Notes under the pieces: model-generated
Databases searched by the model: none
Told to the model about the DNA's origin: nothing
Seen by the model: only the letters and a program-made list of their open reading frames with translations
Part shown: positions 14,822-63,330 of the stretch, piece after piece
Layout: each line of letters begins with the position of its first letter
Position numbering within the stretch: the stretch's first letter is position 1
Made by a program: the position numbers and the translations under genes
Assembly: GCA_017509895.1 (NCBI GenBank)
Contig: JAFWOH010000001.1
Location: 1,454-65,453, forward strand
Direction of reading: 5' to 3'
Source: Candidatus Saccharimonadota bacterium
GTDB lineage: Bacteria > Patescibacteriota > Saccharimonadia > Saccharimonadales > Saccharimonadaceae
Length of the DNA stretch: 64,000 nt

Positions 14822-15019
14822 TGGTAAGAGTCTAGGGTAGGGGGGGTTCTTAAACGCTACTCGCCGCCTGCTACCGCCGAAAAATCACAATAAATAGCCC
14901 ATCCTCAGAGCTCTTATGCGGGAATCTAGGGGGAGCTCTTCGGATGGGTATTTATTGTCATTTTTGCGGGGCGAGTAACGCATTGTTTAAGAACCCCCCC
15001 CTACCCTAGGCTCTTACCA
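14822..15019. repeat. ~198-bp nested palindromic element (REP/MITE-like)
   Basis: ~34-bp near-perfect terminal inverted repeats plus a second internal IR; its 23-bp core recurs at 26151. Confidence 0.8.
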
Positions 15020-44623: not shown

Positions 44624-44711
44624 ATTTTTAGTTTGATTGTTTTATTGTTGACAGATTTATTTTATAGAGTTATAATAGTTGTATGTCATAGCCAGAAGGG
44701 GGTGATGATGA

Positions 44712-44891
44712 ATGGCGACATACAGATGTCCGAGATGCGGACGCCCTTATACAACTCCGGGAGAAGCCATGAAATGTGGTTGCGCGAAGCGCGTAAAATG
44801 TCCAACCTGTAATGGCACAGGGCTTCAATATGGGACAAAGATTCCTTGCAACCGATGTAACGGAGCTGGTACGGTGTACCTTACATATTAA
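44712..44891 (+). CDS. 59-aa Cys-rich zinc-finger protein (not in the ORF track)
   Basis: MATYRCPRCGRPYTTPGEAMKCGCAKRVKCPTCNGTGLQYGTKIPCNRCNGAGTVYLTY; perfect TTGACA-N17-TATAAT, SD AAGGGGGTG, terminator at ~44910-44934. Confidence 0.85.
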   Translation: MATYRCPRCGRPYTTPGEAMKCGCAKRVKCPTCNGTGLQYGTKIPCNRCNGAGTVYLTY

Positions 44892-44938
44892 TTGCTGTTC
44901 TTTAGATTAGACGGAGCAAGAGTTGCTCCGTCTTTTCG

Positions 44939-46114: not shown

Positions 46115-46168
46115 AGAGGTATTATACAGAAAAATCGCCGCTTTCTCAAGCGACGATTTAGTTTTGGG

Positions 46169-46672
46169 CTACTTCTCGAAGTACAGCTTGTCTTCATTGG
46201 GGTCAGCCCATTGGTGCTTCCAAGTGTAAATACTCGGAAGCTGGGATTTGCCAAACACGTCTTTGACGTGTTGGTAGACTCCGAGTAGCTCTGAATCCTC
46301 TTCGCAGGCACTGAATAGAGTCTGTTTGTAGGCACTTGCGAGCTTTACGTCGGTTATGCACATCTGGGAAATAATTCCCAAAACTGTGTAAATGACCTTT
46401 CGGCTGTTTATGCCTCCGTCGCAGCCGAAGCTGCAGACGAAGCGGCCGTAGGTGGTATTTAAATACACTGCGGTCGCCAGCGTATTATCCAGCATGCCGT
46501 CGCCTATGTCGAACTCAATGATCGAGCCGATATTGGCGCGCTCTGCGCTACCGCTTAGTGCGAAGTGGCCGTTTCCAGCTTCCTCGATTTTGAGGTCGTC
46601 CCTCAGGACTTCGAGGATGACCTCGATTTCGAGCGGGTAAAATACCCCGCGCGTAATTTTTAAATTCTTCAT
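46169..46672 (-). CDS. Hypothetical protein, stand-alone cassette
   Basis: TAGACA-N17-TATAAT promoter; SD GGAAGGGGG. Confidence 0.65.
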   Translation of the reverse strand: MKNLKITRGVFYPLEIEVILEVLRDDLKIEEAGNGHFALSGSAERANIGSIIEFDIGDGMLDNTLATAVYLNTTYGRFVCSFGCDGGINSRKVIYTVLGIISQMCITDVKLASAYKQTLFSACEEDSELLGVYQHVKDVFGKSQLPSIYTWKHQWADPNEDKLYFEK

Positions 46673-46795
46673 TGAAATTCCCCCTTCCCTGAAGAAAATA
46701 TATTAATGTGCAAACTGTGTTAATTATATCACATTATTCCGCTTTTGTCTAGTTTATTTTTAATTTTAAGCTTGGTGTAGAGGACGAGTTAGTAT

Positions 46796-47365
46796 TTAGT
46801 ATTCATAGATTTTGATTTGGTCGTTGGGGTGGAGGAAGTTTGACATCTCCTCTTCATCTGTAATATTTTCGGTGATAATCCAGAGGCAGCGGGAGATGAA
46901 AGAGTGGGTGACGAGGAGGAGCTCGGCGCCGTCTTTATATTGATTTTTAATGTCGTCTAGGAAGCTTTGGACGCGGTTTAGGCCAGAAAGGAGAGTCTCG
47001 GCGCCGCTGCCCATGCGCTCGACTTCGAGTGAGTTCCAGAGGGGCTTTTGCCAGAGCTCGTCGATGTTATAATTTTTTAGCTCGCCGAGGTCGCGCTCGG
47101 CGAGGCGGTCGTCATAAATCGGGTCGTATTCTGGGGCGACGATTTGGACAGATTCAATGCAGCGTTTCATCGGGGAGGCGTAGACGGCTTTAAAAGATTG
47201 AAGGATTTTTGGCGCTCCTTGCATTTTTAACAAATCTTCGCGGACTTTTAGCATCTGTTCTCTGCCGTTTGCGGTTAAAATATCTTCAGAGCGACCGGTG
47301 ACGGTGCCAGATAGATTTGATGGAGTTTCGCCATGACGGACGACAATTAATTTAATCTTTCCCAT
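46796..47365 (-). CDS. Histidine phosphatase (phosphoglycerate mutase family)
   Basis: VRHGET, ASPMKRC, L.ERDLG, VTHS. Confidence 0.9.
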   Translation of the reverse strand: MGKIKLIVVRHGETPSNLSGTVTGRSEDILTANGREQMLKVREDLLKMQGAPKILQSFKAVYASPMKRCIESVQIVAPEYDPIYDDRLAERDLGELKNYNIDELWQKPLWNSLEVERMGSGAETLLSGLNRVQSFLDDIKNQYKDGAELLLVTHSFISRCLWIITENITDEEEMSNFLHPNDQIKIYEY

Positions 47366-47491
47366 AGGAATATTATAAGATAGGTTTTAATAAAATGGAA
47401 TATCTCTTTAGGCTTTAGCATGAGCGTTATTGACTTTTTTGATAAAGTGTTGTATAATTAAAGTAAGAAACTTGAAGGGGAGTTCATTAAA

Positions 47492-47821
47492 ATGCCCGGC
47501 GGGGCAAAACGCAGAGAGGGGGACAAAATGGGGACTTCGAAATTAATGTATTATGGCTTGGGAAACGGGCCAAGAGAAGTTAATTGCTACTATGCTGAGG
47601 AAGAAGAAATTCCTCAAGACGAAATTCAGATAGTGGCAAGTCCTCAAGTTGCTGGGGTTATGAAGAAGTTGTTAATTTATACGCTCATAATCTTAGCTGG
47701 TTTTATCGATTTAGCTTTAGGGCTTTTATTGCTCGTAAGAATAGGGGTTTGGCCGATATTTATTTGGGCCTTCTTTAATGCCTTAGAGTTTTATCTGATT
47801 ACCGAGGCGGCGCTCTTCTAG
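47492..47821 (+). CDS. Small membrane protein with two C-terminal TMs (alternative start at 47528)
   Basis: TTGACT-N17-TATAAT promoter; G-rich SDs before both ATGs. Confidence 0.6.
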   Translation: MPGGAKRREGDKMGTSKLMYYGLGNGPREVNCYYAEEEEIPQDEIQIVASPQVAGVMKKLLIYTLIILAGFIDLALGLLLLVRIGVWPIFIWAFFNALEFYLITEAALF

Positions 47822-47882
47822 CGCCGCTTTTTTAGTATGGCTTGTGTATTGACAAAAGCCGTAAAGTGTAATAGACTATATC

Positions 47883-47924
47883 TGAGGGCGACTTGGTGCT
47901 GAACTGTGCCAAGCCGAGCCCTCA
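47883..47924 (+). ncRNA. Candidate small hairpin RNA, copy 1
   Basis: TTGACA-N17-TAGACT directly upstream; 32/42 identical to copy 2 with covarying pairs; followed by TTTT. Confidence 0.65.
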
Positions 47925-47972
47925 TTTTGATGCAAATTAAAAAGAACCTTTGACGGTTATTTGTATTCGTGA

Positions 47973-48014
47973 TGGGGGGTTGGCCTCGCTCAGTTAAGAA
48001 CCAGGTCGCCCCCA
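47973..48014 (-). ncRNA. Candidate small hairpin RNA, copy 2
   Basis: TTGACG-N17-TAATAT promoter whose -35 lies in the last codons of the nuclease gene; homologous to copy 1. Confidence 0.65.
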
Positions 48015-48034
48015 TTATTGTAATATTACCATAT

Positions 48035-48448
48035 CTATTTCGTGACGTCAAGTAGCCGGCCGCTTTTTTCTATGATTAGCATTCGGCGGACTTGGCCACC
48101 GGTTTTGAACATATTTATAAGTTGTATTTCTACTTTGTCTGCATTATTTTTGATGAATCTTAGGTCGAAAATGATTTTAGAAGCTTGTCTAGAGGCTTCG
48201 CGGAAACGGTTTTTAATTGTGTTTCGATTTGCGCTAATTGGTGTTTTTACTTCCCATATTGATCCCATGATGAAGATATCTGGATTTTTAGCCTTTTTAA
48301 TACCAGTGGGCTTAATTAGCTCGATGTTCATACCAAAAAGCGTTAAGTAAGAAAAAGTTTCGTTCTCGTTAGCCTCGGACTTGACTCCGTTTTTATTTAT
48401 GTAGCCAATTTTGTTTTTCTTCGCTTTCGGTATTTCCCTTATTTGCAT
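48035..48448 (-). CDS. Stand-alone CdiA-CT-like PD-(D/E)xK nuclease (putative tRNase toxin domain)
   Basis: KNPD-x8-WEVKTP...NTI...ASRQA..IIFD pattern; no secretion domain and no adjacent immunity ORF. Confidence 0.7.
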   Translation of the reverse strand: MQIREIPKAKKNKIGYINKNGVKSEANENETFSYLTLFGMNIELIKPTGIKKAKNPDIFIMGSIWEVKTPISANRNTIKNRFREASRQASKIIFDLRFIKNNADKVEIQLINMFKTGGQVRRMLIIEKSGRLLDVTK

Positions 48449-48503
48449 GAGATTATTCTAACATAAAAAGAGTCTATTGTATAGACTGCTAAACGGTAGC
48501 TTA

Positions 48504-48688
48504 TTAGCATAAACAGTATTGACTTTTTGGGGTAAGCGTGGTATAATGTATGTGTAGTTTAAGTGAGGTGTTCACGAGACTAGTACCTTAAAAGCGATTA
48601 GAGAAGTTTCATATTCTCGCTTTTTGTGTGATGGCCTTGTGGCAATAATTTCTTCTGCCGGCGGGCATTATACGCAGAAGGAGGGTAT
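48504..48688 (+). promoter_or_regulatory. Promoter + conserved structured leader, copy A
   Basis: Homologous to 58958-59146 (minus strand) from upstream of the -35 to the ATG. Confidence 0.8.
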
Positions 48689-49102
48689 ATGAAGAATTTT
48701 GAAGTTAGTATAATCAGCTATGAAGTGAGTCCCAGTTTTGATCCGCGGTTTGCCCGGAACGGTGGAGGCTATGAGCAGCCTACTATAGAGGGTGAGATCA
48801 GCTGGGATGGCTGTGACGAGCCCATGGAGTTCGTGATAGACGATACTTCATGTGGGGAGTTTGGTAGCCGTTATTCAGTTTCAATCTTCGGTGGTCCGGC
48901 TGAGCTCTGCGGGCAATATTCTACCAACGGGATTGACTTTAATGGAGAGCTTCCAGATGAGTCAAGTTTCAAATGGAGTGAGGAGCTTGAAGAGCTTCGG
49001 GAAGTCTTTGAGAAGGCCACTCGGTTTTGGTTTTATACCGAGGAGGAGTTGAAAGAAGACGACGAGGATGATTTTGAAGAAGGGGGTGACGAAGAAAACT
49101 AA
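48689..49102 (+). CDS. Highly acidic hypothetical protein
   Basis: SD AAGGAGG; about 38 D/E against 9 K/R; terminator AAAAGCGG...CCGCTTTT follows. Confidence 0.7.
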   Translation: MKNFEVSIISYEVSPSFDPRFARNGGGYEQPTIEGEISWDGCDEPMEFVIDDTSCGEFGSRYSVSIFGGPAELCGQYSTNGIDFNGELPDESSFKWSEELEELREVFEKATRFWFYTEEELKEDDEDDFEEGGDEEN

Positions 49103-49155
49103 TCGCAAAAGCGGTGCTAAATGGCGCCGCTTTTTGATGTGGTATAATGGAAGAT

Positions 49156-49956
49156 ATGGGAAAAGTAATTGAAGCAAAAAATTTAGTAAAAGTTTATGGT
49201 AAAAAATCGGCGGCGTTTACGGCGCTGAAGGGGATAAATTTAGAGATTTATGAGGGGGAGAGTGTGGCGATTGTGGGGAAGTCGGGCTCGGGTAAGTCGA
49301 CTCTGATGCACCTTCTTGCGTTACTTGACTCTCCAACGAGTGGGACGATAAAAATTGATGGCGAGGATGCGACAAAACTGTCGAAAAGACAACTAAACAG
49401 GTTGCGAAATTCGCGGTTTGGATTTGTTTTCCAGCAGTTTTTCATGAATGCGAATGATACGGTGCTTGAGAATGTAATGTTGCCTTTAAAAATCGCCGGA
49501 GTTTCTGGGCGAAAGCGAAAAGAGATGGCAATGGAAGCTTTGAAGATTGTCGACCTTGAGAGCAAGGCGAAAAATAAAGCGACAGACCTCTCAGGTGGAC
49601 AGAAACAGCGGGTTTGTATTGCGCGAGCGATTGTGAATAATCCGAAAATTATTTTTGCGGACGAGCCGACGGGCAATCTAGACTCGGCGACTGGTGATAA
49701 AATTACCGATTTGCTATTTGAACTGAATAAGCGACGGGGAGTGACTTTAATTATCGTAACGCATGATGAAGACCTTGCGAAACTCTGTAAGAGAATTGTA
49801 CGGATTTCGGACGGAAAAATTATTTCCGATAGCGCGGTAAGAAAAGATGTCCAAGAAAAGGCTTCAGAGCGGCGCGAAAAAGAGGCGGCGAGGGTCAAAA
49901 AGGCAAATGAAAAGGAGACTGAGGAAAAGAAGACAAGCGAAAAGGAGATGAAATAA
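49156..49956 (+). CDS. ABC transporter ATP-binding protein (MacB/LolD-like)
   Basis: GKSGSGKST, LSGGQKQRV, ADEPTGNLD, VTHD. Confidence 0.92.
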   Translation: MGKVIEAKNLVKVYGKKSAAFTALKGINLEIYEGESVAIVGKSGSGKSTLMHLLALLDSPTSGTIKIDGEDATKLSKRQLNRLRNSRFGFVFQQFFMNANDTVLENVMLPLKIAGVSGRKRKEMAMEALKIVDLESKAKNKATDLSGGQKQRVCIARAIVNNPKIIFADEPTGNLDSATGDKITDLLFELNKRRGVTLIIVTHDEDLAKLCKRIVRISDGKIISDSAVRKDVQEKASERREKEAARVKKANEKETEEKKTSEKEMK

Positions 49957-51266
49957 TGAAAACTCTAGATATTATTAAATCGGCAAATTCAAATTTATTT
50001 AGAAATAAGACGCGGACATTCTTGACTATTCTGGCGGTATTTATTGGTTCATTCACGATTATCTTAAATTCGGCGATTAATTCTGGTGTAAACGATTTTA
50101 TCGACCGACAGGTAGAGAGCGCGGGTGGAGATGGATATCTTGAGATTATGACAAGCGAAGCGATAGATATGATGGCTGCTATGATGAATACTTCCGAGGT
50201 GCAGGAGTATAAAGAAAAGGATAATAGTGGCCAGAATAGATCTTATATTACTGACGAGCAAGTAAGAAAGGCGCGGGCAATACCTGGAGTAGAGTCAGTA
50301 GACCTAATTTATTATGCGACGCCGGAGTACATAAAACGAAAAGATTCCGACGAAAAATATGCGGTGACAAGTTTAAATTTGATGCCGAGAGGTAATGTTA
50401 ATCTCGATGTGACCGCTGGGCGCAAGCCAGATTCTAGCACCGATAAGACGGAGGTGGCGCTAACGGAGGCTTATGTCAAAGCGCTAGGATTTTCTAGCGA
50501 TGAAGATGCAATTGGTAAAGTGGTAACTTTTGCAGTACCGAACACAATTGGTTGTTATACGGCAGTAAAGAGAGAAGATTGTTTGAAATTTGTTGATGCG
50601 GAAGTGGTAGCAGTGCAGGCGCCAGGCGTAATGGCAACCGGCGGAATGCGTGCAAATTTGGCACTCAATGAGCAAATTTATAATCTTGCAACTGAGGGAA
50701 TGCCAGAAGAAACAAAACGTCATGCTTTTCAGGCGACAGCACAGGTAGATCCGGCGAGAGTGGATGAGATAAAAGAAGAAATGAAGAAGATTGGACTTGC
50801 AGCAGTGACGATTGATGATGAAGTTGGGATGATTAGAACATTCTTTGATGCGATTTTGGTTGTCTTTACGATTTTCGGAGCAATTGCTTTGGTTGCGGCC
50901 TCGATTGGAATTATTAACACCCTGTTTATGTCAGTGCAGGAGCGGACGCGCGAGATTGGTCTGATGAAGGCAATGGGGCTTTCGAGCGGACGAATTTTCT
51001 TCAGCTTTTCTTGCGAGGCGATTTTGCTCGGCTTTTGGGGGTCGGTGTTTGGGATTATTGTTTCGATGGTTATCGGTTTGATTGGTAATCAGATTGCGCA
51101 CCAGACATTCCTCGCCGATTTTCCGACGTTTGATCTCGTGAAGTTTAATCCGGTCAACATGGCGATTATTGTTTTGATTATTATGGCGATTGCTTTCCTG
51201 GCTGGGACTTTACCGGCGAGACGGGCGGCGAAGAAGAACCCGATTGATGCTCTAAGATACGAGTGA
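49956..51266 (+). CDS. ABC transporter permease (MacB/FtsX-like)
   Basis: RNKTRTFLT, large extracellular domain, NTLFMSVQERTREIGLMKAMG, PARRAAKKNPIDALRYE. Confidence 0.92.
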   Translation: MKTLDIIKSANSNLFRNKTRTFLTILAVFIGSFTIILNSAINSGVNDFIDRQVESAGGDGYLEIMTSEAIDMMAAMMNTSEVQEYKEKDNSGQNRSYITDEQVRKARAIPGVESVDLIYYATPEYIKRKDSDEKYAVTSLNLMPRGNVNLDVTAGRKPDSSTDKTEVALTEAYVKALGFSSDEDAIGKVVTFAVPNTIGCYTAVKREDCLKFVDAEVVAVQAPGVMATGGMRANLALNEQIYNLATEGMPEETKRHAFQATAQVDPARVDEIKEEMKKIGLAAVTIDDEVGMIRTFFDAILVVFTIFGAIALVAASIGIINTLFMSVQERTREIGLMKAMGLSSGRIFFSFSCEAILLGFWGSVFGIIVSMVIGLIGNQIAHQTFLADFPTFDLVKFNPVNMAIIVLIIMAIAFLAGTLPARRAAKKNPIDALRYE

Positions 51267-51432
51267 TATCGCGTAGCGGAGCGAATTACTTCCTCAGCGG
51301 ATGCGCTACGGTGATATTGCGTAGTAGGGCGAGCTGCTTCGTTAGGAGATGCGCTCCTCGCTCTCCGTACTTTAAGTACGGTTCGCTCCGGTGCTCCTCC
51401 TGCCTCGCATCTCATCCCTACTACGCAATATC
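51266..51432. repeat. Nested palindromic element (REP-like)
   Basis: 17-bp perfect IR (51313-51329/51416-51432), inner IRs GAGATGCG/CGCATCTC and CCGTAC/GTACGG, and an upstream hairpin. Confidence 0.75.
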
Positions 51433-51475
51433 TGGAACTAGCGAGAAAAGCACAAACGGTGTATAATATAAGCAT

Positions 51476-54418
51476 ATGCCGAAATATCAGACATATGGTC
51501 AGTATGACGCGAGAAAAGATGAATTTCCGGAAAGTGCGGAGAAGGTTTTGCGTGCTGGAGAAGAGGCGGCGAGTGGAGATTTTGAAAAAGATGCAGTTTC
51601 TAGTGAGAAACTAGAGAAAGATGAGCAACAAGGTTTTTATAATAGTACCGCGAGAGAGGCGAATAAGCGAGAGGGCTTGTATCAAGGTTCTGGGCTAGTA
51701 ACGGCTCTAAATGGGGCGCGCGGAAGGAGTAAGGGCGGGAGCTTTATGAAAAGGCGGGCGCCGCTGATTGCAATTATCGCCTTGATTGGCGGGATGGCGG
51801 TCGGGATTGGTTTTTCACAGGTCTTAATGCCCTTTCATGTGATTGAATCTTTGACAGAGGTGACAGACGGAGCATTTACGGCGAGAGCAGCACGGATGCC
51901 GAGCCTTGCAAAGTGGATTTTTAATATGGAGACACAAGATGTATTTACAGAAAGCACACCAAGAATTAAGAGCTTGTTGACTGGTGAGCATTATCGTTTT
52001 AGGAGCAATATTGAATCGAATAAGGTAAAAGCTAGATTGGCAGACGAAGGTATAGATGTCGACACAAGTAGCGGAAAAACAGTTTTAAACTATCATCAAG
52101 CGGATGGGTCGGTTCGTACGGTGACGGCGGATGACTATGCGGAACTTTGGCGGAGTGATGCGGACTTTCGGAATAAGATGAATCGGGGAGGCAGGAGTTT
52201 CCTCGGACGGATTGCGGCCCATATTGATTTAACTTTGGCAAATTTTTTGAGTAGTCATAATCTGACGAAGAATTTATTTAAGGGTTGGATAAATAAAGTT
52301 TATGAGGCGGAGGGGCAGACAGCAAGGCTTCATAGTGTGATCGAGGAGAGGAAATCTAGTACACTTGGAGATGTCGATGCTGGTACTGGTAAATCTAATA
52401 TTGATGAAGATGATAAAATAGGAAGTATTCAACAAATTGGGGATGAAGAGGGGCCAAAAAAGATAAATCCAAAAACCGATACTGATGCAGATCTCAAAGG
52501 TAAATATACCGATATGATAGCGAATGTCGCTAGTATTACTACGAGTGCGGTTTGTGGGGCGGCGGCGGTGGCCTCGGCGGTGACAGCGGCAAAATTAGTA
52601 ATAGCCTATTCTAATGCGCGCGGAACTTTTTCGGCGCAGGCAGAAGGAGTAGATAAGGTGAAGGCTGGGATGGGTAATACATCGCCAATTAATGCTATCG
52701 CTGACGAGATGATGGCGAAAGACGAAAATGGAAAGACAATGTTGCAGTCTGAGCAAATGAAATGGGCGATTTCTGGCGGGGCTTATACGCCGAATAAGAA
52801 TGCGGAGGATGTAGTGAGTAATAGTCAGGATGCGATGCTTCGAGGCACCGGAGGGATATTTGATGGGCTTTCTGGTTTTTGGAATAATCTTGGAACAATT
52901 GGGTCAAGTACAAAGTGGATTATTGGTTGTGCGGCGGCAAATGTAGCGACGGCAACGATTTCAATAATAGCGAATATTGCAACTGCTGGTATGTTTTCGT
53001 TTGGGAAATTTGCACTTACTGCGGTGGCGGGGATAGGTTTATCCGTAGGAGTAAGCAAGTTAGCTTCAATGTTGGTAGAAAATGCAAAATCTGATTTTTG
53101 TCTTGATAAAACTGGGGTAGCAAGAGGCGCCTGTGTTTATCTGGGGGCTTCAAATTATAATGGTCTGAATTTTCAAAATGGCGGGGGGACATTGGCAACG
53201 CGCGAAAAAGCGGAGGCTTTCTATGATTCATATAAGATAGCTTTGGCGGATGAGGCGGAGCTGATTCGGAGCGAGAAAAGTCCCTTTGATGCTTCGTCTT
53301 CACACACATTCTTAGGCTCAATTATTTCAAAATTCTCAGTCTTGGCAGTAGATATGCCAGACACAGCAAATATGCTGAGCAATCTCGCCAATGTGACGAT
53401 GTCTTCATTCAACAGTTTATTACCTTCAGCATCGGCGCTTGAAAAAACTAGTTTCTTAGATAACCAATTACGCAATGATTGCGAGAATTTAAATTTCGGC
53501 AGTTTTCAGGCGCTAGGAGATACAAATTGTGAGGCTTGGTATATTACGGACCAAAGCATGAATGATTCTAATCCGGAGGAGACTTTTAATTACTTAATGA
53601 ATTATCATCTAGCACATATCGGAGTCGAATCGATGTTCGAGATGAATGCGGATGGAAGTCTAAAAACAGACGAGAAAACTGGCGCAGAAATAATAAATCC
53701 GAAATCAGATTTAGCGAAATATATTTCTTATTGCGCTTATCGTAATTCCCCGTTTGGCCATGTTGACCAAAATATTATGGATGCCGAAACTTCGTTAATA
53801 AAGACAGGAAACGAGACGGCGAATAGTACAATAAATCAAATATTAGGCGTGATTCCTATTGTTGGCGATTTCATTCAGGCTGTTCAGGGGGTGAGCCAGA
53901 TTGCAACTTTAGGATGGAGTACGGGAGCGAATTGTGTGGCTAGAGGAACGGCAGTTGATACGCAAATTGACGGTATGACTGTGGATGATGTTTCTCAGGG
54001 TCCGCAGACGGCAGGCGCAGTAAGCTTAACTTCTTGGAATGAATTTATGAAATATGCACAAAGTTATGTAGCAGATGATAGGTATATGGAAACGGTAGAC
54101 AAGGATTATGTTTCACCGGTGCAAGAATATATGAAGGGCTATGGAGGGATGACATCGGATGACGAGTTGTCATTCGTGGAATATTTGGCGAAGTATTCGG
54201 GATATACGGTGGAAAATATGCAGATTGCCTTAAATGAAATTGAATATTGGACTTATATTGGGCAATATGACCCGGAGGGTAAGGGGCCGATGAAGTTTGC
54301 TACTGAGGCCGAGCCGACTTATGATTTTACCTCGCCGGAAGTGGTTCCGTCGGAGGTTTTGGCGATTTTGCCGCGGCGGGTGGTTTATCTCACGCGTGAG
54401 CAGTGGACGACGGCATAA
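51476..54418 (+). CDS. 980-aa hypothetical membrane protein with Cys-containing extracellular region
   Basis: Long uninterrupted ORF; TM near residue 100; Ala/Gly-rich hydrophobic hairpins in the middle. Confidence 0.75.
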   Translation: MPKYQTYGQYDARKDEFPESAEKVLRAGEEAASGDFEKDAVSSEKLEKDEQQGFYNSTAREANKREGLYQGSGLVTALNGARGRSKGGSFMKRRAPLIAIIALIGGMAVGIGFSQVLMPFHVIESLTEVTDGAFTARAARMPSLAKWIFNMETQDVFTESTPRIKSLLTGEHYRFRSNIESNKVKARLADEGIDVDTSSGKTVLNYHQADGSVRTVTADDYAELWRSDADFRNKMNRGGRSFLGRIAAHIDLTLANFLSSHNLTKNLFKGWINKVYEAEGQTARLHSVIEERKSSTLGDVDAGTGKSNIDEDDKIGSIQQIGDEEGPKKINPKTDTDADLKGKYTDMIANVASITTSAVCGAAAVASAVTAAKLVIAYSNARGTFSAQAEGVDKVKAGMGNTSPINAIADEMMAKDENGKTMLQSEQMKWAISGGAYTPNKNAEDVVSNSQDAMLRGTGGIFDGLSGFWNNLGTIGSSTKWIIGCAAANVATATISIIANIATAGMFSFGKFALTAVAGIGLSVGVSKLASMLVENAKSDFCLDKTGVARGACVYLGASNYNGLNFQNGGGTLATREKAEAFYDSYKIALADEAELIRSEKSPFDASSSHTFLGSIISKFSVLAVDMPDTANMLSNLANVTMSSFNSLLPSASALEKTSFLDNQLRNDCENLNFGSFQALGDTNCEAWYITDQSMNDSNPEETFNYLMNYHLAHIGVESMFEMNADGSLKTDEKTGAEIINPKSDLAKYISYCAYRNSPFGHVDQNIMDAETSLIKTGNETANSTINQILGVIPIVGDFIQAVQGVSQIATLGWSTGANCVARGTAVDTQIDGMTVDDVSQGPQTAGAVSLTSWNEFMKYAQSYVADDRYMETVDKDYVSPVQEYMKGYGGMTSDDELSFVEYLAKYSGYTVENMQIALNEIEYWTYIGQYDPEGKGPMKFATEAEPTYDFTSPEVVPSEVLAILPRRVVYLTREQWTTA

Positions 54419-54443
54419 AAAAGTGATATAATTGATACTAGAT

Positions 54444-54518
54444 TGAGCCGTCGCCAAGTGGTAAGGCACTGGGTTTTGGTCCCAGCATTCGCAGGTTCGA
54501 ATCCTGCCGGCTCAGCCA
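54444..54518 (+). tRNA. tRNA-Gln(TTG)
   Basis: TGAGCCG/CGGCTCA acceptor stem, CTGGG-TT-TTG-GT-CCCAG anticodon arm, GGTTCGAATCC, encoded CCA. Confidence 0.96.
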
Positions 54519-54580
54519 AAACGAAAATCGAGAGCTTGCTCTCGGATTTTTGTTTTGCGCGTGCCGGCTTTAGGATCCAC

Positions 54581-54600
54581 ATCCTGCCGGCTCAGCCAAA
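54581..54600 (+). repeat. Direct repeat of the tRNA-Gln 3' end (att-like scar)
   Basis: ATCCTGCCGGCTCAGCCAAA identical to 54501-54520. Confidence 0.85.
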
Positions 54601-54687
54601 TGCAATATTATGAATCGGTTTTGGCCGATTTTTTTGATGAAAAATCTTTGTATATCCTAAACGACTTTGTGCATTTTTCGACATAGA

Positions 54688-55243
54688 AAAAGCCGCTAGT
54701 GTACTAGCGGCTGGGAACCCTTTCGGGCAGTGAAAACAATATTTTATCTTTTTCCTATTTTTTTTCCAGATTGAGCAGTACTACTCTGCAAAGCTCTTTT
54801 GCAATCTGGATGATTGTATAGACAAGTATAAAACATCTTCGCATTTTCTTCTGATGATATGATCATAGTCATACGTTCTTCCAAAAATGTTTTCTCACTT
54901 AAAGTACTACTACCGACAAAGAATATGGCTAAAGCCACTAAAGATTCCTCTCATTTTGCCAAGCATTCCCGCTTAGACGACTTCTAATATTTCCCGCTAT
55001 GACGGGAGCAATAAGAAGTTGCACTCGTCTAACGAGCTACGGTTCAGCCTTAAGACTCGTTTTCTTCTCGACTACGGATAGATTTCAAGTTCCTATTCAG
55101 CTAAGCTGTATGTCCAACTGATAGCACCGCATCGAGTTTTAACAATCTGTGCATGATTGCCAGAAAACTTGTCTTACAAACAAACGTTTCAGAATCATTC
55201 TTTTAAGTTACGCGACTCTTCGTCTCCCATAACTCGGAGTATG
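54688..55243 (-). ncRNA. Candidate ~550-nt structured transcript (may include a 64-aa ORF at 54744-54938)
   Basis: TTGACA-N17-TATAAT at 55277-55249; many hairpins; terminator AGCCGCTAGT/ACTAGCGGCT + TTTT. Confidence 0.45.
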
Positions 55244-55388
55244 TTTATATTATAGCATACATTGTAAAAAATGTCAATATATTTTATGCTTTTCTGCTGA
55301 AATTATCAAATTGCATTCTTTGTACTCTGTTAATGTCAGTTTAATTTTGCTCAGCCATTTGACTTTACGCCTGAATATGGCGTATTTT

Positions 55389-55913
55389 TTACTCGATAGA
55401 AAGTATTTTGCCGTTTTTTAGGTGGAGGATGCGTTGATTGCGGGAGCCGCGGAATTTCAGAGTTAAATCACGCTCTGCGAGGACGAAGCGGCCGTCGATG
55501 AGGGCGTCGAGCTCGTTTAGGAAATCTAGGGTAGCCTGATTTTTCTTAGCCTGTTTTTCATCATCAGTCTTGGCTTTGCCATAATCGACAATTTCTTCGT
55601 AGGTAAAGCCGGAAAAGCTCCAGACATCCCAGCCGAGTTCTTTTTTGGCAAATCTTGCAAGCTCAAGGCAGGCCTCTGGCTGGACAAAAGGCTCGCCGCC
55701 GCAGAAGGTGAGGCCGGTCTGGCCCTTTAACTTCCGCAGCTCGTCCTTTACTTCTTCGACATCGATGAGAAATCCGCCGTTAAAATCCCAAGTTTCTGGA
55801 TTCTGACAGCCCTCGCAATGATTCGGGCAACCCTGCGTCCAAATGACGGCGCGGAGGCCCGGGCCATTGACGATGCTGTCACGCTCGATAGGACCTGATA
55901 GGCGGATTTTCAT
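55389..55913 (-). CDS. nrdG: Anaerobic ribonucleotide reductase activating protein
   Basis: GPGLRAVIWTQGCPNHCEGC radical-SAM motif, GGEP, DGRF...GSRNQR. Confidence 0.95.
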   Translation of the reverse strand: MKIRLSGPIERDSIVNGPGLRAVIWTQGCPNHCEGCQNPETWDFNGGFLIDVEEVKDELRKLKGQTGLTFCGGEPFVQPEACLELARFAKKELGWDVWSFSGFTYEEIVDYGKAKTDDEKQAKKNQATLDFLNELDALIDGRFVLAERDLTLKFRGSRNQRILHLKNGKILSIE

Positions 55914-55914
55914 A

Positions 55915-58278
55915 TTATTCCTTTCCTAACGCTTTCTTAGCGGTTTTCTTGGCCTTCTCGCGGGCGGACTTTTCGGAGACGGAATAGACGCCGTCTTTAT
56001 GGCAGGTCTCGCAGGCGACGGAGTGCTTGACGCGGGCGGCCTCCTCGGCCTTCTTGCCGTCATTCCAGCGCTCTAGGCTACCTACGAGATAGCCGGTGAT
56101 GCGACGGAGGCGCTCAAAGAGAACATCATCCTCGATGCGGCCGCAAGACGGGCAGCGATTCCCTTTGATGATACCAGAAAAGCCACAGACCGGATCGCGA
56201 TCGACAGGGTGATTGACCGAGCCATAGCCAATACCGGCATCTTTCATGTGGCGGATGACCGCTTCAAAAGCCTCGATATTATCGGAAGGATCACCGTCTA
56301 ATTCAATATAGCTAATATGGCCGGCATTACAGAGGGCGTGGAAGGGTGCCTCTTTGTCGATTTTATCAAAAGCGGAAATATTATAATAAACTGGGACATG
56401 GAAGGAATTGGTATAGAAATCGCGGTCGGTGACGCCTTCGATTTTACCATATTCTTTACGATCCATCTTAGTAAAGCGACCGGCAAGACCCTCGGCAGGA
56501 GTGGCGAGGAGCGAGAAATTGAGATGATATTTCTTGGTATATTCATCACATCTCTCGCGCATATGGGTGATGATGTCGAGACCGAGCTCCTCGGCCTCGT
56601 CTGACTCGCCATGATGCTGGCCAATCATCGCCTTTAAGGTCTCGGCGAGGCCGATAAAGCCGATAGAGAGAGTGCCATGCTTAATTACATCACCTAGCTT
56701 ATCATTAGGCTTTAATTTTTCAGAACCGAACCAGTTCCCTTGTCCCATGAGGAAGGGGAAGTTTCTAACGTGCTGATTGGCTTGAAAGTCATAGCGCTCA
56801 AGAAGCTCATCTTTAACTAAGTCCATCATCTTATCAAGGTCTTTATAAAAACCGGACCAGTCTGCTTCCTTTCTTTCGCCGAGGCAGATGCCATGCTTGA
56901 TGCCGAGGCGGACGAGATTAATCGTGGTGAAGGAGCAGTTGCCGCGACCGGTCACGATGCCATCTGACTCTTTAAAGCAAGAGCCAAAGACGCGGGTGCG
57001 GCAGCCCATGGTGGCAATCTCGGTATTGTAATCGCCGGGCTTATAATATTGGAGGTTAAACGGCGCATCGATGAAGGTGAAATTCGGGAAGAGCCTTTTT
57101 GCCGAGACTTCCATACTGCGCTTAAATAAGTCATAATTCGGGTCTTCAGGATTATAGTTAACTCCCTCTTTGACCTTGAAAATGGAAATCGGGAAAATCG
57201 GGGTCTCGCCATGACCGAGGCCGTTCATGGTAGCCTCGAGGAGATACTTCGAGACGAGGCGGCCAGAGGGGCTGGTGTCCGTACCGAAGTTAATACTCGT
57301 GAATGGCACCTGAGCGCCGGCACGGGAATGCATGGTGTTAAGATTATGGATAAAGCCCTCCATGGCTTGAAAAGTCTGTTTCTCGGTATCCTCGGTACTA
57401 GCCTTAATAACAGAGGCGGGGACTTTAAGCTTCTTTAATTTTTCATCTTCGCCAAATTTAATATCATCGGGGATTTCAATCTTAAGATGCTTATCGGCGA
57501 ATTCATTGTATTTTTCGAGATTAGATTTTAAGGCCTTTTTGAAAGTCTTGTCGACGCCGGGAGCCATGGCATAGTCGAAATTCGGAATGGACTGTCCACC
57601 ATGTTGCTCGTTTTGATTGGCTTGAAGGATGATGGCGGCGAGAGCGGCATAGGAACCAATCGAATTGGGGGTGCGGAGATGACCATGACCGGTATTAAAA
57701 CCACCGTTTGCAAAAAGTTTTAGAGGGTCTGTCTGACAACAAGTGAGGGTGCCGGTGGCATAGAAATCGAGATCATGAATATGGATGTCGCCATTATCAT
57801 GAGCATAGGCATGCTCCGGCTTTAATAATACAATTTTAGCAAAGGCCTTTGAACCCTCAGCGCCGAATTGGAGCATTTTGCCCATGGCGGAATTACCATC
57901 AACATTAGCGTTAGATCGCTTAATATCGGAATCTTCGGAAGCATCAGCGATAGAAATGGTCTTATAAGCCTCCATGAGATTTGACTTGGCATCGCGGACC
58001 TTGTTTCTTTCCTGACGATAAGTAATGTATTCCTTAGCGGTACGCTTAAAGCTGGACTCCATCAAGACGCGCTCGACGATGTCCTGAATCTGTTCTACCT
58101 TCGGAGTGCGCTCTGTGATTTCCTCTTCAGCGACTTTTAGTACCTTTTCGGTCAGCTGTTTGGCGCGGTCATATTTAAATTCTTCGGTCGCTGCTCCGGC
58201 CGCAGCGATAGCGTCGGTGATTTTTTCGGGATTGAAACTGACGATTTTTCCATCTCGTTTCTGAATTTTCTTGAACAT
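55915..58278 (-). CDS. nrdD: Anaerobic (class III) ribonucleoside-triphosphate reductase with ATP cone
   Basis: N-terminal ATP cone, HIHDLD, TCCQ, MGCRT, TPAEG, RRITGYL glycyl-radical motif. Confidence 0.97.
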   Translation of the reverse strand: MFKKIQKRDGKIVSFNPEKITDAIAAAGAATEEFKYDRAKQLTEKVLKVAEEEITERTPKVEQIQDIVERVLMESSFKRTAKEYITYRQERNKVRDAKSNLMEAYKTISIADASEDSDIKRSNANVDGNSAMGKMLQFGAEGSKAFAKIVLLKPEHAYAHDNGDIHIHDLDFYATGTLTCCQTDPLKLFANGGFNTGHGHLRTPNSIGSYAALAAIILQANQNEQHGGQSIPNFDYAMAPGVDKTFKKALKSNLEKYNEFADKHLKIEIPDDIKFGEDEKLKKLKVPASVIKASTEDTEKQTFQAMEGFIHNLNTMHSRAGAQVPFTSINFGTDTSPSGRLVSKYLLEATMNGLGHGETPIFPISIFKVKEGVNYNPEDPNYDLFKRSMEVSAKRLFPNFTFIDAPFNLQYYKPGDYNTEIATMGCRTRVFGSCFKESDGIVTGRGNCSFTTINLVRLGIKHGICLGERKEADWSGFYKDLDKMMDLVKDELLERYDFQANQHVRNFPFLMGQGNWFGSEKLKPNDKLGDVIKHGTLSIGFIGLAETLKAMIGQHHGESDEAEELGLDIITHMRERCDEYTKKYHLNFSLLATPAEGLAGRFTKMDRKEYGKIEGVTDRDFYTNSFHVPVYYNISAFDKIDKEAPFHALCNAGHISYIELDGDPSDNIEAFEAVIRHMKDAGIGYGSVNHPVDRDPVCGFSGIIKGNRCPSCGRIEDDVLFERLRRITGYLVGSLERWNDGKKAEEAARVKHSVACETCHKDGVYSVSEKSAREKAKKTAKKALGKE

Positions 58279-58330
58279 AAAAACTATTACCTCACTTGAT
58301 ATTATTATTATTATTTTGTTTTTGGTTTAG

Positions 58331-58378
58331 ACCCCATATTTAGTGTCTGGAACTATTATAGAACACTATATGTAGTGT
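58331..58378. promoter_or_regulatory. Tandem NrdR boxes flanking the nrdD -10 element
   Basis: ACCCCATATTTAGTGT (58331-58346) and ACACTATATGTAGTGT (58363-58378), 32 bp apart; TTGCAA-N17-TATAAT. Confidence 0.85.
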
Positions 58379-58504
58379 TGCAATAGTTTTTTAGCATAAT
58401 TTTTATGAATTTTTTGGGAGTTTTCCACAAACGAAAGGTAGGGTACTTACTGATTTTATTTTTGATATAAAAAAGCGATGCATTTTACTGCATCGCTTTT
58501 GCGA

Positions 58505-58957
58505 TTAGAAACCGATTTCTTCTTTGAGGATATTGTTCATGTCGGCAGTGTTTGATTCTGCATTACCAACCCCTTCTTCATTCTGAACCTCTAGTTCTGA
58601 CACATTTTCGAATCTAATTGTGCCGTAGGTTGTATCATACTCAAAACACTCTATGTAATCTGGCAAAACAATAGCATTGTCGATGTATACCATCTCGCCA
58701 TTTTGAGTTTCCATAAGATAGCTATATGAATGTTCGCTATCACCTACGGGCCTCTTTTCCACTTCAAGTATTTTATCACCTTTGTGAAAATCTCCTTTGA
58801 TTCCTAGAAAGCGTTCAGCTAGTTCGTCGGCGTCGGTATTTTGCCCCCCTATTGGTATATAATTTGATGGTTCATATTCATGAGCGGCATCGTTTGAACC
58901 ACATCCTGTTAAAATAAGTGCTAAAAGTGAAACCGCTAAAATCATTCCTTTTGTCAT
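58505..58957 (-). CDS. Hypothetical lipoprotein-like protein
   Basis: Signal peptide with lipobox-like LTGC; under leader copy B; terminator at ~58470-58500. Confidence 0.7.
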   Translation of the reverse strand: MTKGMILAVSLLALILTGCGSNDAAHEYEPSNYIPIGGQNTDADELAERFLGIKGDFHKGDKILEVEKRPVGDSEHSYSYLMETQNGEMVYIDNAIVLPDYIECFEYDTTYGTIRFENVSELEVQNEEGVGNAESNTADMNNILKEEIGF

Positions 58958-59146
58958 ATACCCACCTTTCTGCGTTTATTGCCCGCCGGCAAAAGAAAAT
59001 ATTTTGCCACAAGGCTACCACATAAAAAGCGAGAATATGAAATCTCTCTAATCGCTTTTAATGTGCTAGCCTCGTGAAATCTCACTTAAACTTTACACTT
59101 GTATTATATCACACTTTCTCTTTAAAGTCAATACTGTTTATGCTAA
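58958..59146 (-). promoter_or_regulatory. Promoter + conserved structured leader, copy B
   Basis: Homologous to 48504-48688. Confidence 0.8.
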
Positions 59147-59276
59147 AAAACTCATTTAGTCAAATTGACAGTATTCCCTCTGTAGCCAGACGAAGGCTTA
59201 GGTGGGCATTGGTTATCTATAAGAGGAGTTTCTGCTGGTTGCTCAGGCTAGAAACTAGTGCTATAATTATCGGGAA

Positions 59277-63187: not shown

Positions 63188-63313
63188 TTTAGATTTTAGC
63201 ATAGGAATTTTAGAATTTAGCATAGGCAGTTTAGATTCTAGCATAAGAATCTTTAGATTTAGCATAAGAGGTTTAAATTTTAATATAAGAATCTTAAGAT
63301 TTAGCTTAAGGAT
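63188..63313. repeat. Six tandem degenerate 21-bp repeats (consensus TTTAGATTTTAGCATARGAAT)
   Basis: Exact 21-bp period starting at 63188, 63209, 63230, 63251, 63272 and 63293; ends at the -10 of the GH97 gene. Confidence 0.9.
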
Positions 63314-63330
63314 TGTAGTATAATATAGAT

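Follow-up and report, generated by a model that had tools for sequence, protein, structure and literature searches.

The window analysed here, a stretch of 64,000 nucleotides from a Candidatus Saccharimonadota bacterium, carries nearly the same promoter and structured 5′ leader in front of two genes with unrelated products. What is repeated may be a regulatory RNA, a recombination site, the leftover of a duplication, an inserted element or the beginning of a larger unit. The last reading is favoured, with a probability of about 0.6: the repeats would be the 5′ ends of moron-like, self-contained expression cassettes with exchangeable payloads.

The repeat unit

Copies A (48504-48691, plus strand) and B (59146-58955, minus strand) are inverted repeats lying 10.4 kb apart. 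They share 84.5% identity over 194 columns (blastn, E = 1.8e-29), where a first-pass annotation had put the likeness before two unrelated genes at ∼80%, and their mean column identity in the MAFFT alignment is 85%. The 23-mer TTAGCATAAACAGTATTGACTTT, common to both, occurs exactly twice versus 0 expected occurrences. Likeness breaks off at the ATG and comes back with the final codon and stop, and the downstream proteins have no relation to each other (blastp). A simple segmental duplication does not account for the two loci. The repeat unit is larger than first noted: a promoter close to consensus is followed by a structured leader, an ORF that varies and a common intrinsic terminator running from the stop codon (Table 1). 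The first-pass annotation recognized the leader duplication but overlooked the common terminators and a third, short family member, cassette S (47415-47833), 1 kb upstream of A. In all, eight cassette types are distinguished: A, B and S in the window, and C to G in relatives.

The S promoter is 77% identical to the copy A promoter. The S leader gives a weak CM match (E = 0.15), and a core-block regex matches only the known cassettes, S and its ortholog in relative L009. As the ATG chosen by the ORF finder (47492) falls within P4 of S, the true start is likely at 47528. The A leader, delineated by alignment, RNAalifold and pair counts, and the B leader, with a fold z-score of -3.9, each score 164 bits (CM R1). 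In a metagenome (103x) that contains the same strain, the contig depth fits only two long-leader copies per genome, and the element is therefore not a dispersed repeat.

Table 1. Parts of cassettes S, A and B in the window
Feature	Position	Strand	Details
Cassette S promoter	47415..47458	+	TTAGCATGAGC element; TTGACT 47430-47435; 17-nt spacer; TATAAT 47453-47458; promoter scan 11/12
Cassette S short leader	47459..47527	+	Purine-loop small hairpin 47469-47484; P4 UGCCC-GGCG-GGGCA 47493-47506; SD block ACGCAGAGAGGGGG 47509-47522; direct reading
Payload S	47528..47821	+	∼97 aa; hydrophobic, two-helix-like C-terminal half; ends ...TTC TAG
Cassette S terminator	47806..47833	+	Overlaps stop codon; GCGCCGCTTTTT in common with copy A terminator; terminator scan
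Cassette A promoter	48504..48547	+	TTAGCATAAAC 48504-48514; TTGACT 48519-48524; 17-nt spacer; extended -10 TGGTATAAT 48539-48547; promoter scan 11/12 with TG
Cassette A structured leader	48548..48688	+	P1 48563-48575; P2 core 48576-48638 (extended 48572-48642); P3 48641-48659; P4 48656-48667; SD block ACGCAGAAGGAGGG 48672-48685
U-run after P2, A	48621-48625	+	
Payload A	48689..49102	+	137-aa acidic orphan without signal peptide
Cassette A 3′ module	49100..49135	+	TAA, then directly common intrinsic terminator (stem-loop and T-run 49107-49135)
Whole segment holding cassette B	58415..59251	-	Boundaries by blastn versus L011 and L012
Cassette B 3′ module	58469..58507	-	TAA, then directly common terminator 58500-58469
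Payload B	58505..58957	-	150-aa orphan lipoprotein, LTGC lipobox
Cassette B structured leader	58958..59102	-	P1 59085-59074; P2 core 59073-59011 (extended 59077-59007); P3 59008-58988; P4 58991-58980; SD block 58975-58961
U-run after P2, B	59028-59024	-	
Cassette B promoter	59103..59146	-	TTAGCATAAAC 59146-59136; TTGACT 59131-59126; 17-nt spacer; extended -10 TGATATAAT 59111-59103; promoter scan 11/12 with TG

Folding of the leader RNA

The leader folds as RNA. Overall, 93.1% of cells are paired, versus 38-51% when the partners are slid. Five pairs are compensated, copies E and G not being independent witnesses for covariation, and the covariation score is reached by only 1 of 500 shuffles. 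The compensatory changes are located in P1, the P2 core and P4. In long leaders, the MFE is -42 to -54 kcal/mol in the sense orientation and -21 to -40 kcal/mol in antisense. The four helices P1, P2, P3 and P4, each at least 90% paired, form two mutually exclusive sets, namely P1 with P3 versus extended P2 with P4. The GTGA/TCAC hairpin (P1), the long hairpin AAAAGCGA/TCGCTTTT (P2) and the GGCA/TGCC stem (P3), described beforehand from A and B, are backed by the further copies.

The GGCG loop is invariant over a covarying stem (UGCC/GGCA, GCU/AGC, UGCCC/GGGCA) and the GAUUAGAGA bulge region is invariant in all long copies; every copy comes from one narrow clade, and this conservation may partly reflect recent common descent. 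The common terminator, present in A, B, C, E and F, is 100% paired and has two compensated pairs. The 5′-proximal hairpin displays an SD-like purine stretch, which reads UAAGUGAGGUG in A-D and F, GUGGAGGAAG in E and UGAAGGGGAG in S.

Payloads and distribution

The payloads of the eight types are mutually unrelated, save for an N-terminus common to C and F. Most of the ORFs encode lipoproteins or membrane-anchored orphans; apart from these, there are an acidic orphan of the cytoplasm and a Tad4-like product. Payload A (AlphaFold2 pLDDT 50) has a sole match among 5.8 billion proteins, a 99%-identical copy, and the only homolog of payload B is 93% identical. No Pfam, PHROG or PADLOC match exists for payloads A and S, and no function common to the payloads was found. 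The exact apical block of the leader has one occurrence in 185,579 species-representative genomes and is absent from JGI metagenomes and IMG/VR. It does not extend beyond a single narrow clade of animal-gut Saccharibacteria.

A regulatory switch?

The folded leader could be a true cis-regulatory RNA (riboswitch-like, a protein- or sRNA-controlled switch, or an attenuator) that would toggle between the P1/P3 and extended P2/P4 sets. The compensatory changes, the mutually exclusive helices and the invariant loop and bulge speak for such a role, as does the Rfam scan, in which the leader matches no known family. The first-pass annotation had offered the same view as one of two alternatives, proposing an attenuator combined with SD occlusion, but three of the details it invoked are not conserved. 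D lacks the U-run following P2, which in the L022 allele of B is interrupted, and the anti-SD stretch TTCTTYTGC is missing in D, E and F, where the SD is predicted to be open after P2 formation. Among the copies, the SD is predicted to pair with differing partners, its accessibility lying between 0.01 and 0.62. The supposed swap of palindromes, ACTAGT to GCTAGC, does not hold either (GCTAGT in E, ACTAGA in D), CTAG alone being invariant. D has only a shortened P1-P3 module and S none at all, the main hairpin module being dispensable in these two members, and neither a multi-stem junction nor an aptamer-like core is evident in the leader. The unrelated orphan payloads and the single genomic occurrence of the apical block argue in the same direction. 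The duplicated leader is probably not a metabolite-sensing switch, and the wider cis-regulatory reading is doubtful as the main explanation, a regulatory role of the folded RNA being possible.

Exchange of payloads between strains

Comparison between strains reveals a kept frame (promoter, leader, terminator) with a different ORF at two chromosomal sites. At site A, the window and L009 are 99.5-100% identical to mid-leader, identity collapses over the ORF and is 99% again past the terminator; relative L017 has a third payload at this site. At a nrdG-tRNA site, the ORFs of L020 and L024 are unrelated, but the leaders before them are 94% identical and the terminators after them the same. Breakpoints lie within the leader and at the terminator, their positions vary between strains, and other runs contain mosaic leader alleles (e.g. 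a C-type middle joined to an A-type 3′ end and ORF A).

Each of the two cassette sites is found empty in relatives, and closely related strains differ by the gain or loss of entire cassettes. The B segment is absent in L011-L021 and L024, including L017 with its 98%-identical NrdD, where a cutinase/VWA gene is directly followed by nrdD. Apart from strains near-identical to the window's own, no relative examined (NrdD 88-98%) has cassette B. Between the window and L022, two 96%-identical strains, differences number 1/145 in the leader, 0/38 in the terminator and 14/453 in ORF B; codon differences are 10 nonsynonymous and 3 synonymous in payload B and 1 and 84, respectively, in nrdD. Payload B evolves fast, and conservation is far higher in the frame than in the payload.

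These comparisons bear on the idea that the A/B likeness is a neutral leftover from an old duplication of a gene with its flanks, now functionless, the ORFs having diverged or been overwritten. The presence of only two or three closely related copies per genome, all in one narrow clade, would suit it, but against differences of 3-4% in the enclosed ORF and the genes nearby, the frame shows 99-100% conservation, and substitutions in stems are compensated or give wobble pairs. Likeness that stops exactly at the ATG and resumes at the last codon and stop, and different ORFs within the same frame at one site, also make this reading improbable.

Even less credible is a DNA site for a site-specific recombinase (vpma/vsp-, shufflon- or attC-like), at which the inverted A and B would invert or swap genes. 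Their inverted orientation and the 70-nt imperfect palindrome of P2 recall such sites, as do the conserved 5′ UTRs of unrelated lipoprotein genes in Mycoplasma agalactiae, which are Xer1 sites (PMC2268961). However, no recombinase family appears in the Pfam annotation of the gene lists within ±10 kb of any cassette, and no joints or inversions were seen among contigs aligned to the leader. Every copy has its own promoter, so that inversion would not switch expression; breakpoints vary by strain and yield mosaic alleles; and the many G-U pairs, G-T mismatches in DNA, leave the hairpin far weaker on the opposite strand. Least probable of all is a MITE-like miniature inverted-repeat element, landed by chance in two leaders: P2 has terminal inverted arms of ∼24 bp and weaker reverse-strand self-matches (nhmmer, CM), but its depth in the same metagenome corresponds to exactly two copies, both in leader context, the CM finds no further P2-like match in 245 kb of the clade, no target-site duplication is present, and its position is fixed relative to the promoter and SD.

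How the cassettes may work

In the favoured reading, that of expression cassettes with exchangeable payloads, the unit opens with a TAGCATAA element, which is followed by a sigma-70-type promoter close to consensus. It continues with an RNA-folding leader made of a small hairpin P1, a long bulged P2, P3/P4 with the GGCG-loop hairpin and an extended SD block ACGCAGAAGGAGG, followed by a variable small ORF and a conserved intrinsic terminator starting at the stop codon. The frame may have two jobs. The first would be to supply ready-made transcription, translation start and termination to any enclosed ORF, the folded leader acting as a constitutive mRNA-stabilizing or translation-initiation module rather than as a ligand sensor; the start site, the stability effect and constitutive expression are predictions from sequence. 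For a simple stabilizer, the invariant GGCG loop, the invariant GAUUAGAGA and the two exclusive helix sets look over-elaborate.

The second job would be carried by the conserved ends, which may be homology arms through which a naturally competent organism would exchange payloads by ordinary homologous recombination. Saccharibacteria display natural competence and integrate linear DNA by homologous recombination (PMC10633639). The terminator arm, only ∼40 bp, is short for RecA-driven exchange. The longer core genes on either side could serve recombination just as well; conservation of the frame would then reflect the expression function alone. The first-pass alternative of a mobile, gene-capturing cassette holds up for the most part: the swappable ORF in a kept frame and the presence or absence of cassettes agree with it. 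Signs of an autonomous mobility mechanism were not found: there was neither a recombinase nor a target-site duplication, and breakpoints vary. 'Exchangeable by homologous recombination' therefore fits better than 'mobile'.

Comparison with known systems

Phage morons, a concept from lambdoid phage comparative genomics, are autonomous promoter-ORF-terminator units between genes that are adjacent in related genomes. Likewise, each cassette has its own strong promoter and intrinsic terminator, lies between genes adjacent in relatives and carries a small accessory payload without obvious housekeeping role, one of them with a Tad4-like phage anti-defence domain. Unlike morons, the cassettes reside in a bacterial chromosome, with no phage genes in their flanks and no IMG/VR match. 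Classical morons have no common frame, whereas here one promoter, leader and terminator serve different payloads that are replaced in place.

Leaders that stabilize mRNA or promote translation initiation include the Escherichia coli ompA 5′ UTR, the Bacillus subtilis aprE leader, the cryIIIA STAB-SD and the phage SP82 stabilizer. By sequence alone, the cassette leader resembles them in its SD-like purine hairpin, long double-stranded hairpin of a size that RNase III cuts, strong extended SD and apparent portability to unrelated ORFs. With riboswitches and attenuators it shares a structured, covarying 5′ leader with alternative helices upstream of the SD; it differs in lacking an Rfam match, a conserved terminator tail or SD sequestration and a coherent downstream function, in its very narrow distribution and in the dispensability of its main hairpin.

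Integron cassettes, too, are exchangeable units of ORF size, with a structured element, conserved and imperfectly palindromic, at their boundary. Their attC sites lie 3′ of a promoterless ORF, are recombined by IntI as folded single-stranded DNA and form arrays next to the integrase gene. Here, in contrast, a promoter precedes the hairpin and the ORF follows it, G-U pairs give it an RNA-like stabilization, and the cassettes are solitary with no nearby integrase.

Highly conserved 5′ UTRs before otherwise non-homologous coding sequences are known in the vpma genes of M. agalactiae and the vsp genes of M. bovis (PMC2268961). Common traits are a majority of lipoproteins, reduced genomes of host-attached organisms and recombination at the conserved 5′ region (PMC2268961). 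The Mycoplasma genes, however, form a cluster served by a single promoter, have a signal peptide conserved among them and are reshuffled inside the cell by a neighbouring Xer-type recombinase. The present cassettes are dispersed, with their own promoters and terminators and no nearby recombinase; their signal peptides differ, being common to C and F only, and variation occurs between strains, not within a clone.

Implications

Were the cis-regulatory reading true, strain-variable surface or accessory proteins would be under one post-transcriptional signal. In the preferred reading, a gut Saccharibacteria lineage would place swapped, small, fast-evolving orphan genes within the same strong promoter, leader and terminator, the leader being one piece of a reusable expression cassette.

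A repeated expression frame around unrelated genes

The promoter and leader of cassette A (copy A) and those of cassette B (copy B) are 84.5% identical over 194 alignment columns (blastn E = 1.8e-29; MAFFT aligns them too), from TTAGCATAAACAGTATTGACTTT through TATAAT to the ATG. The 23-mer at their 5' end has exactly two occurrences in the window, with 0 expected by chance. Likeness stops at the start codon; cassette A encodes an acidic protein of 137 aa without a signal (payload A), cassette B an unrelated lipoprotein of 150 aa (payload B). This confirms and extends the first-pass annotation, which had described a promoter and leader duplicated in front of two unrelated genes. In the promoter scan, both promoters (TTGACT-17 nt-TATAAT with a TG extension) have 11 of 12 consensus matches, and the cassettes appear to carry their own near-consensus promoter. 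They also appear to carry their own factor-independent terminator, TCGCAAAAGCGGTGC...GCACCGCTTTTT, common to A and B and placed directly 3' of each TAA; its stem of 11 bp, followed by a T-run, is 100% paired in five cassettes, with two compensated pairs. Since the same terminator follows each ORF, the repeated unit consists of promoter, leader, ORF (the payload) and terminator, a larger repeat than first described; the frame is this unit minus its payload. The organism, a Saccharibacterium, comes from animal gut metagenomes. A swap between the palindromes ACTAGT and GCTAGC, listed earlier as a conserved element, was dropped as a feature, further copies reading GCTAGT and ACTAGA. A leader peptide was likewise rejected: no conserved short ORF is seen by eye, and the ATG-TAT-GTG-TAG of copy A is missing from copy B.

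Positions of the cassettes and of other features (window coordinates unless another locus is named)
Feature	Locus	Position	Strand	Description
Cassette A	window	48504-49135	+	
Copy A	window	48504-48691	+	promoter and leader
Terminator of A	window	49107-49135	+	
Cassette B	window	59146-58469	-	
Copy B	window	59146-58955	-	promoter and leader
Terminator of B	window	58500-58469	-	
Segment holding cassette B	window	59251-58415		~840 bp
Cassette S	window	47415-47833	+	
Promoter of S	window	47415-47458	+	
Cassette C	L009	site A		same promoter, variant leader, different ORF (178-aa lipoprotein), same terminator
Cassette D	L012			leader much shorter
Cassette E	L020	between nrdG and tRNA gene		leader type and terminator as in G, unrelated ORF
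Cassette F	L017	site A		payload is a third lipoprotein
Cassette G	L024	between nrdG and tRNA gene		leader type and terminator as in E, unrelated ORF
Payload G	L024	13086-13619	-	177 aa, Tad4 domain then hydrophobic helices
CdiA_C-domain gene	window	48035-48448	-	137 aa, divergent from cassette A
Start region of ABC ATPase gene	window	49138-49158	+	extended -10 at 49138-49148
ABC ATPase-permease pair	window	49147-51266		
nrdG-tRNA interval	window	55275-54690	-	
NrdR-box-like palindromes	window	58378-58363; 58346-58331	-	nrdD promoter
Tandem 21-bp units	window	63188-63318	+	six units
Inverted repeat	window	14819-14846 / 14995-15022		28 nt
Direct repeat	window	6496-6660 and 34911-35075		165 nt

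Immediately past the terminator of cassette A, the ABC transporter operon has a -10 box of its own, so the leader is not obviously its driver. The ATG given to the ABC ATPase gene by the ORF finder (49147) falls within the TATAAT of the extended -10 (TGTGGTATAAT); the next ATG (49156) comes ~7 nt after the box, which suggests a leaderless ABC ATPase mRNA. The TATAAT-N7-ATG arrangement is also kept in L009 and L017, two loci of relatives.

Other promoter-proximal elements were observed. The motif TAGCATAAR is enriched across the window, with 8 matches where 1.15 are expected. In cassettes A and B it immediately precedes the -35 box, it makes up the six tandem units (TTTAGATTTTAGCATAAGAAT) directly upstream of a promoter near 63306-63316, and its reverse-complement form TTATGCTAA immediately precedes the -35 box of nrdD. 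The motif is a candidate UP-like element or promoter-proximal site for a binding protein. The palindromes ACACTACATATAGTGT and ACACTAAATATGGGGT of the nrdD promoter flank the -10 box, the standard arrangement for NrdR control. Elsewhere, the window holds an inverted repeat (93% complementary, with a G7/C7 run and arms 148 nt apart) and a direct repeat of 70% identity, its copies 28 kb apart, which may be paralogous coding sequence.

Further members of the family

A strict pattern, the invariant apical block of helix P2 of the leader, was run on 185,579 species-representative genomes (GTDB) and gave one true match, a Saccharibacteria MAG locus (L009) that is 91-94% identical to the window and carries cassette C. 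In JGI metagenomes it gave no true match and one chance match, in a high-GC contig (L010), and two other leader patterns had no match in IMG/VR. Such patterns may miss divergent relatives; the apical block is too strict, because cassettes D, E, F and G differ in it. These four were found by fetching ±10 kb around nrdD in graded relatives, followed by nhmmer and covariance model searches. Cassette S is a third, short member within the window: its short leader has the GGCG-loop hairpin and ACGCAGA-purine Shine-Dalgarno (SD) block of the family, and its terminator has GCGCCGCTTTTT in common with that of cassette A. The coding sequence of S finishes with ...TTC TAG. Payload S more likely starts at 47528 than at the ATG of the ORF finder (47492), which falls within the hairpin.

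Promoter, P4 hairpin and extended SD form the core common to all eight types; the P1-P2-P3 block belongs to the long leaders, is shortened in D and is missing in S. In a 103x run of the same strain, the contig depth over P2 and the long leader corresponds to just two copies, so this is not a dispersed repeat. A MITE or dispersed palindromic repeat was downgraded on this count and also because 245 kb of this clade gave no other match and the insert ends carry no duplication. The element seems confined to a narrow clade.

The leader as a structured RNA

RNAalifold and a covariance model (R1) give the leader four helices, 5' to 3': P1, a hairpin of 4 bp; P2, a much longer one of ~23 bp that contains a GAUUA bulge; P3, a helix that competes with P4; and P4, a hairpin of 4-5 bp with an invariant GGCG loop. 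Across eight leaders, which are related sequences (E and G of common ancestry) in an alignment fitted to the model, 93.1% of cells are paired, against 38-51% with the partners slid; five pairs changed on both sides, and the covariation score was reached by 1 of 500 shuffles. Compensation is seen in P1 (GUGA/UCAC versus GUGG/CCAC), in inner P2 (CACAU/AUGUG versus UACGU/GCGUA) and in P4 (UGCC/GGCA versus GCU/AGC versus UGCCC/GGGCA). The leaders of A and B fold better than shuffled controls (z = -2.7 and -3.9). Many G-U pairs give the sense strand an advantage of 8-25 kcal/mol in folding over the antisense strand, a bias that points to RNA and not to a DNA palindrome. Collectively, the leader is predicted to be a structured RNA element, its pairs kept by compensatory or wobble changes on the transcribed strand. 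P1, a candidate counterpart of the 5'-proximal hairpin or SD-like sequence of 5' mRNA stabilisers (STAB-SD or 5' hairpin type), lies ~10-16 nt from the predicted start (placed from the -10 box); each member has GAGGUG, GGAGGA or GGGGAG there.

An Rfam scan, proposed in the first-pass annotation, matched no family at gathering or permissive thresholds: release 15 gave only two tRNAs over the whole window at gathering thresholds, and permissive scans of both leaders gave chance-level matches (E >= 0.1) to miRNA and sRNA models. This is an undescribed structured RNA leader in a phylum with very few known RNA elements. RNA runs searched with cassette B and with the 10 kb between the cassettes yielded no matching run.

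Regulatory readings of the leader

P1 is in competition with the base of P2, as is P3 with P4, while all four helices are at least 90% paired; a two-state relay of the modelled helices is thus possible. A fuller form of this idea, which we consider unlikely, makes the leader a switch between P1+P3 and an extended P2+P4, so that any ORF inserted would join a single post-transcriptional regulon and the conserved ends would let strains swap payloads through recombination. The switch might be read by a protein, an sRNA or a ribosome-binding event at the SD-like 5' hairpin or the invariant GGCG loop. If true, the family would be a natural plug-and-play regulon of surface and anti-defence proteins in an ultrasmall epibiont.

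Attenuation by a hairpin and T-run had been read from copies A and B in the first-pass annotation. The U-run UCGCUUUUU follows P2 in A, B, E and F; at its position C reads UUUUG, D reads CCCCUUUAG and the allele of B in strain L022 reads UCGCUCUUU. An intrinsic-terminator attenuator was downgraded, as the U-run is missing in D and interrupted in the L022 allele; in the full P2 it is paired to an A-run, and the terminator scan does not flag the hairpin and U-run of the leader. Occlusion of the SD by an anti-SD stem meets a similar fate: the anti-SD UUCUUYUGC is missing from D, E and F, and the predicted accessibility of the SD is inconsistent, P(unpaired) ranging from 0.01 to 0.62 with differing partners; with P2 formed, D, E and F leave the SD open. 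A translational switch was thus downgraded for want of a conserved SD-sequestering helix. A riboswitch in general is not supported, because the payloads are unrelated orphans that form no coherent gene set and the strict pattern scans reveal no wide spread. Together, the unconserved U-run and anti-SD, the payloads without common function and the narrow clade leave a ligand riboswitch or classical attenuator, one half of the earlier proposal, an unsupported, less likely reading.

Payload exchange, gain and loss

The other half, a mobile expression cassette, stands in modified form: what is seen is a shared frame within which payloads have been replaced at two sites, cassettes present in some strains and absent from others, and much stronger conservation of the frame than of the payloads. 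At site A, the chromosomal position of cassette A, the window and L009 are 99.5-100% identical from 47801 to mid-leader; identity collapses over the ORF and is back to 99% just past the terminator. At the nrdG-tRNA site, L020 and L024 have a 94%-identical leader and the downstream DNA in common, not the ORF. In other runs, one allele of copy A has three substitutions that repair P2 mismatches, and a second allele joins a C-type middle to an A-type 3' end and ORF A. The mosaic alleles indicate that breakpoints vary, as would be expected of homologous recombination and not of a fixed crossover site.

Gain or loss is seen at two places. The segment with cassette B is missing from every examined relative outside the near-identical strains of the window, even from one with 98% NrdD identity; the cutinase/VWA gene and nrdD are adjacent without it in L011-L021 and L024, and its ends show no target-site duplication. 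In L012 and L018-L020, the ABC ATPase gene abuts the His_Phos gene, with S, the CdiA_C-domain gene and cassette A all missing. Pfam gene lists of all flanks (±10 kb) contain no recombinase family. Site-specific recombination and neutral duplication were both considered as explanations and downgraded.

The surroundings vary in other ways. Over 42216-50082, comparison with L009 gives an identity mosaic of 78% to 100% in 200-bp bins, which argues for frequent homologous recombination among strains of the clade, independent of the cassettes. With respect to the neighbouring gene for a ~980-aa membrane protein, the ABC ATPase-permease pair of L011 and L013-L016 has the opposite orientation to that of the window, L012 and L017-L020; the region around the cassettes is thus rearrangement-prone. 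The window's nrdG-tRNA interval, which holds cassettes E and G in relatives, has a strong promoter (TTGACA-17-TGCTATAAT) driving ~550 nt of little coding potential (largest ORF 42-64 aa) that end at the terminator CCAGCCGCTAGTACACTAGCGGCTTTTTC. This region has no Rfam match at E <= 1 and is a candidate for a long leader or for an unannotated non-coding RNA.

Constraint on frame and payload

Compared with L022, a strain ~96% identical overall, the window differs at 1 of 145 leader positions, at 0 of 38 terminator positions and at 14 of 453 positions of ORF B, with 10 nonsynonymous to 3 synonymous codons; for the neighbouring gene nrdD the codon counts are 1 nonsynonymous and 84 synonymous. A conserved frame here encloses a fast-evolving payload, on which selection is either relaxed or diversifying.

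The payloads and a neighbouring CdiA_C protein

The payloads are mutually unrelated, except for the N-terminal ~50 residues common to C and F. Hydrophobic secretion or membrane segments occur in six of the eight: B, C and F are lipoproteins, D and E have N-terminal anchors, and S has a hydrophobic C-terminal half. A search of 5.8 billion proteins leaves payloads A and B as orphans, so the frame cannot be traced through payload homologs; the AlphaFold2 model of A (pLDDT 50) is uninformative. Payload G matches Pfam Tad4 above the curated cut-off, has a phage PHROG match and ends in a hydrophobic tail; in PADLOC and PHROG screens of the payloads, only G matches a phage family. Tad4 is a type I Thoeris inhibitor, a phage anti-defence family, and a protein with this domain is unusual in a bacterial chromosome outside a prophage.

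The protein encoded divergently from cassette A matches Pfam CdiA_C (49.6 bits, cut-off 26.6), the C-terminal domain of contact-dependent inhibition toxins. It has a PD...E-x-K-like motif, stands alone without a delivery domain and also matches a PHROG annotated as head maturation protease (E = 1.4e-8). Its L009 counterpart is 100% identical, while nearby core genes differ by 6-8%. A toxin-immunity pair with the acidic payload A is unlikely, because L009 and L017 keep an identical CdiA_C gene and have lipoproteins replacing payload A.

Proposed mechanism and comparison with known systems

With the frame around it, any ORF would be strongly transcribed and cleanly terminated, and its mRNA would be stabilised and efficient in translation initiation; this role is suggested by the 5'-proximal hairpin with its SD-like purine stretch, the long hairpin and the extended SD. 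Payloads may also be exchanged through the homology of the conserved frame ends. Natural competence and the integration of linear DNA by homologous recombination are known in Saccharibacteria (PMC10633639).

Several known systems share part of this organization. Phage morons have the same autonomous promoter-ORF-terminator logic and, like the cassettes, are inserted between genes that are adjacent in relatives (here cutinase/VWA-nrdD and ABC ATPase-His_Phos); unlike morons, the cassettes have a chromosomal setting and a frame common to different payloads. Their flanks (±10 kb) hold chromosomal genes (nrdDG, ABC transporter, tRNA, cutinase-like) and no phage structural genes. The vpma/vsp genes of Mycoplasma resemble the cassettes in placing a conserved 5' UTR before otherwise unrelated coding sequences, in their case for lipoproteins, and these UTRs act as recombination sites (PMC2268961). 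They differ in having a single promoter, clustered genes, a conserved signal peptide and an adjacent dedicated tyrosine recombinase, whereas cassette signal peptides differ except in C and F and the copies are dispersed, each with a promoter. Integron cassettes are arrayed beside intI, each a promoterless ORF with attC on its 3' side; in the cassettes described here, the structured element lies between a promoter and the ORF, and the cassettes are solitary, with no integrase in their flanks.

Saccharibacteria are ultrasmall epibionts in which surface and accessory proteins are thought to decide host range. To our knowledge, almost nothing is known of how they express or diversify such genes. 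The locus offers a standardised natural expression frame, with one promoter, a folded leader and a terminator, for strain-variable, fast-evolving orphans that are exchanged in place and include lipoproteins, membrane proteins and a Tad4-like protein. The cassettes also offer promoter, leader and terminator parts for new Saccharibacteria genetic systems. They provide a testable example of how a reduced genome may keep its accessory repertoire small yet quickly renewable, with no dedicated machinery of mobile elements.
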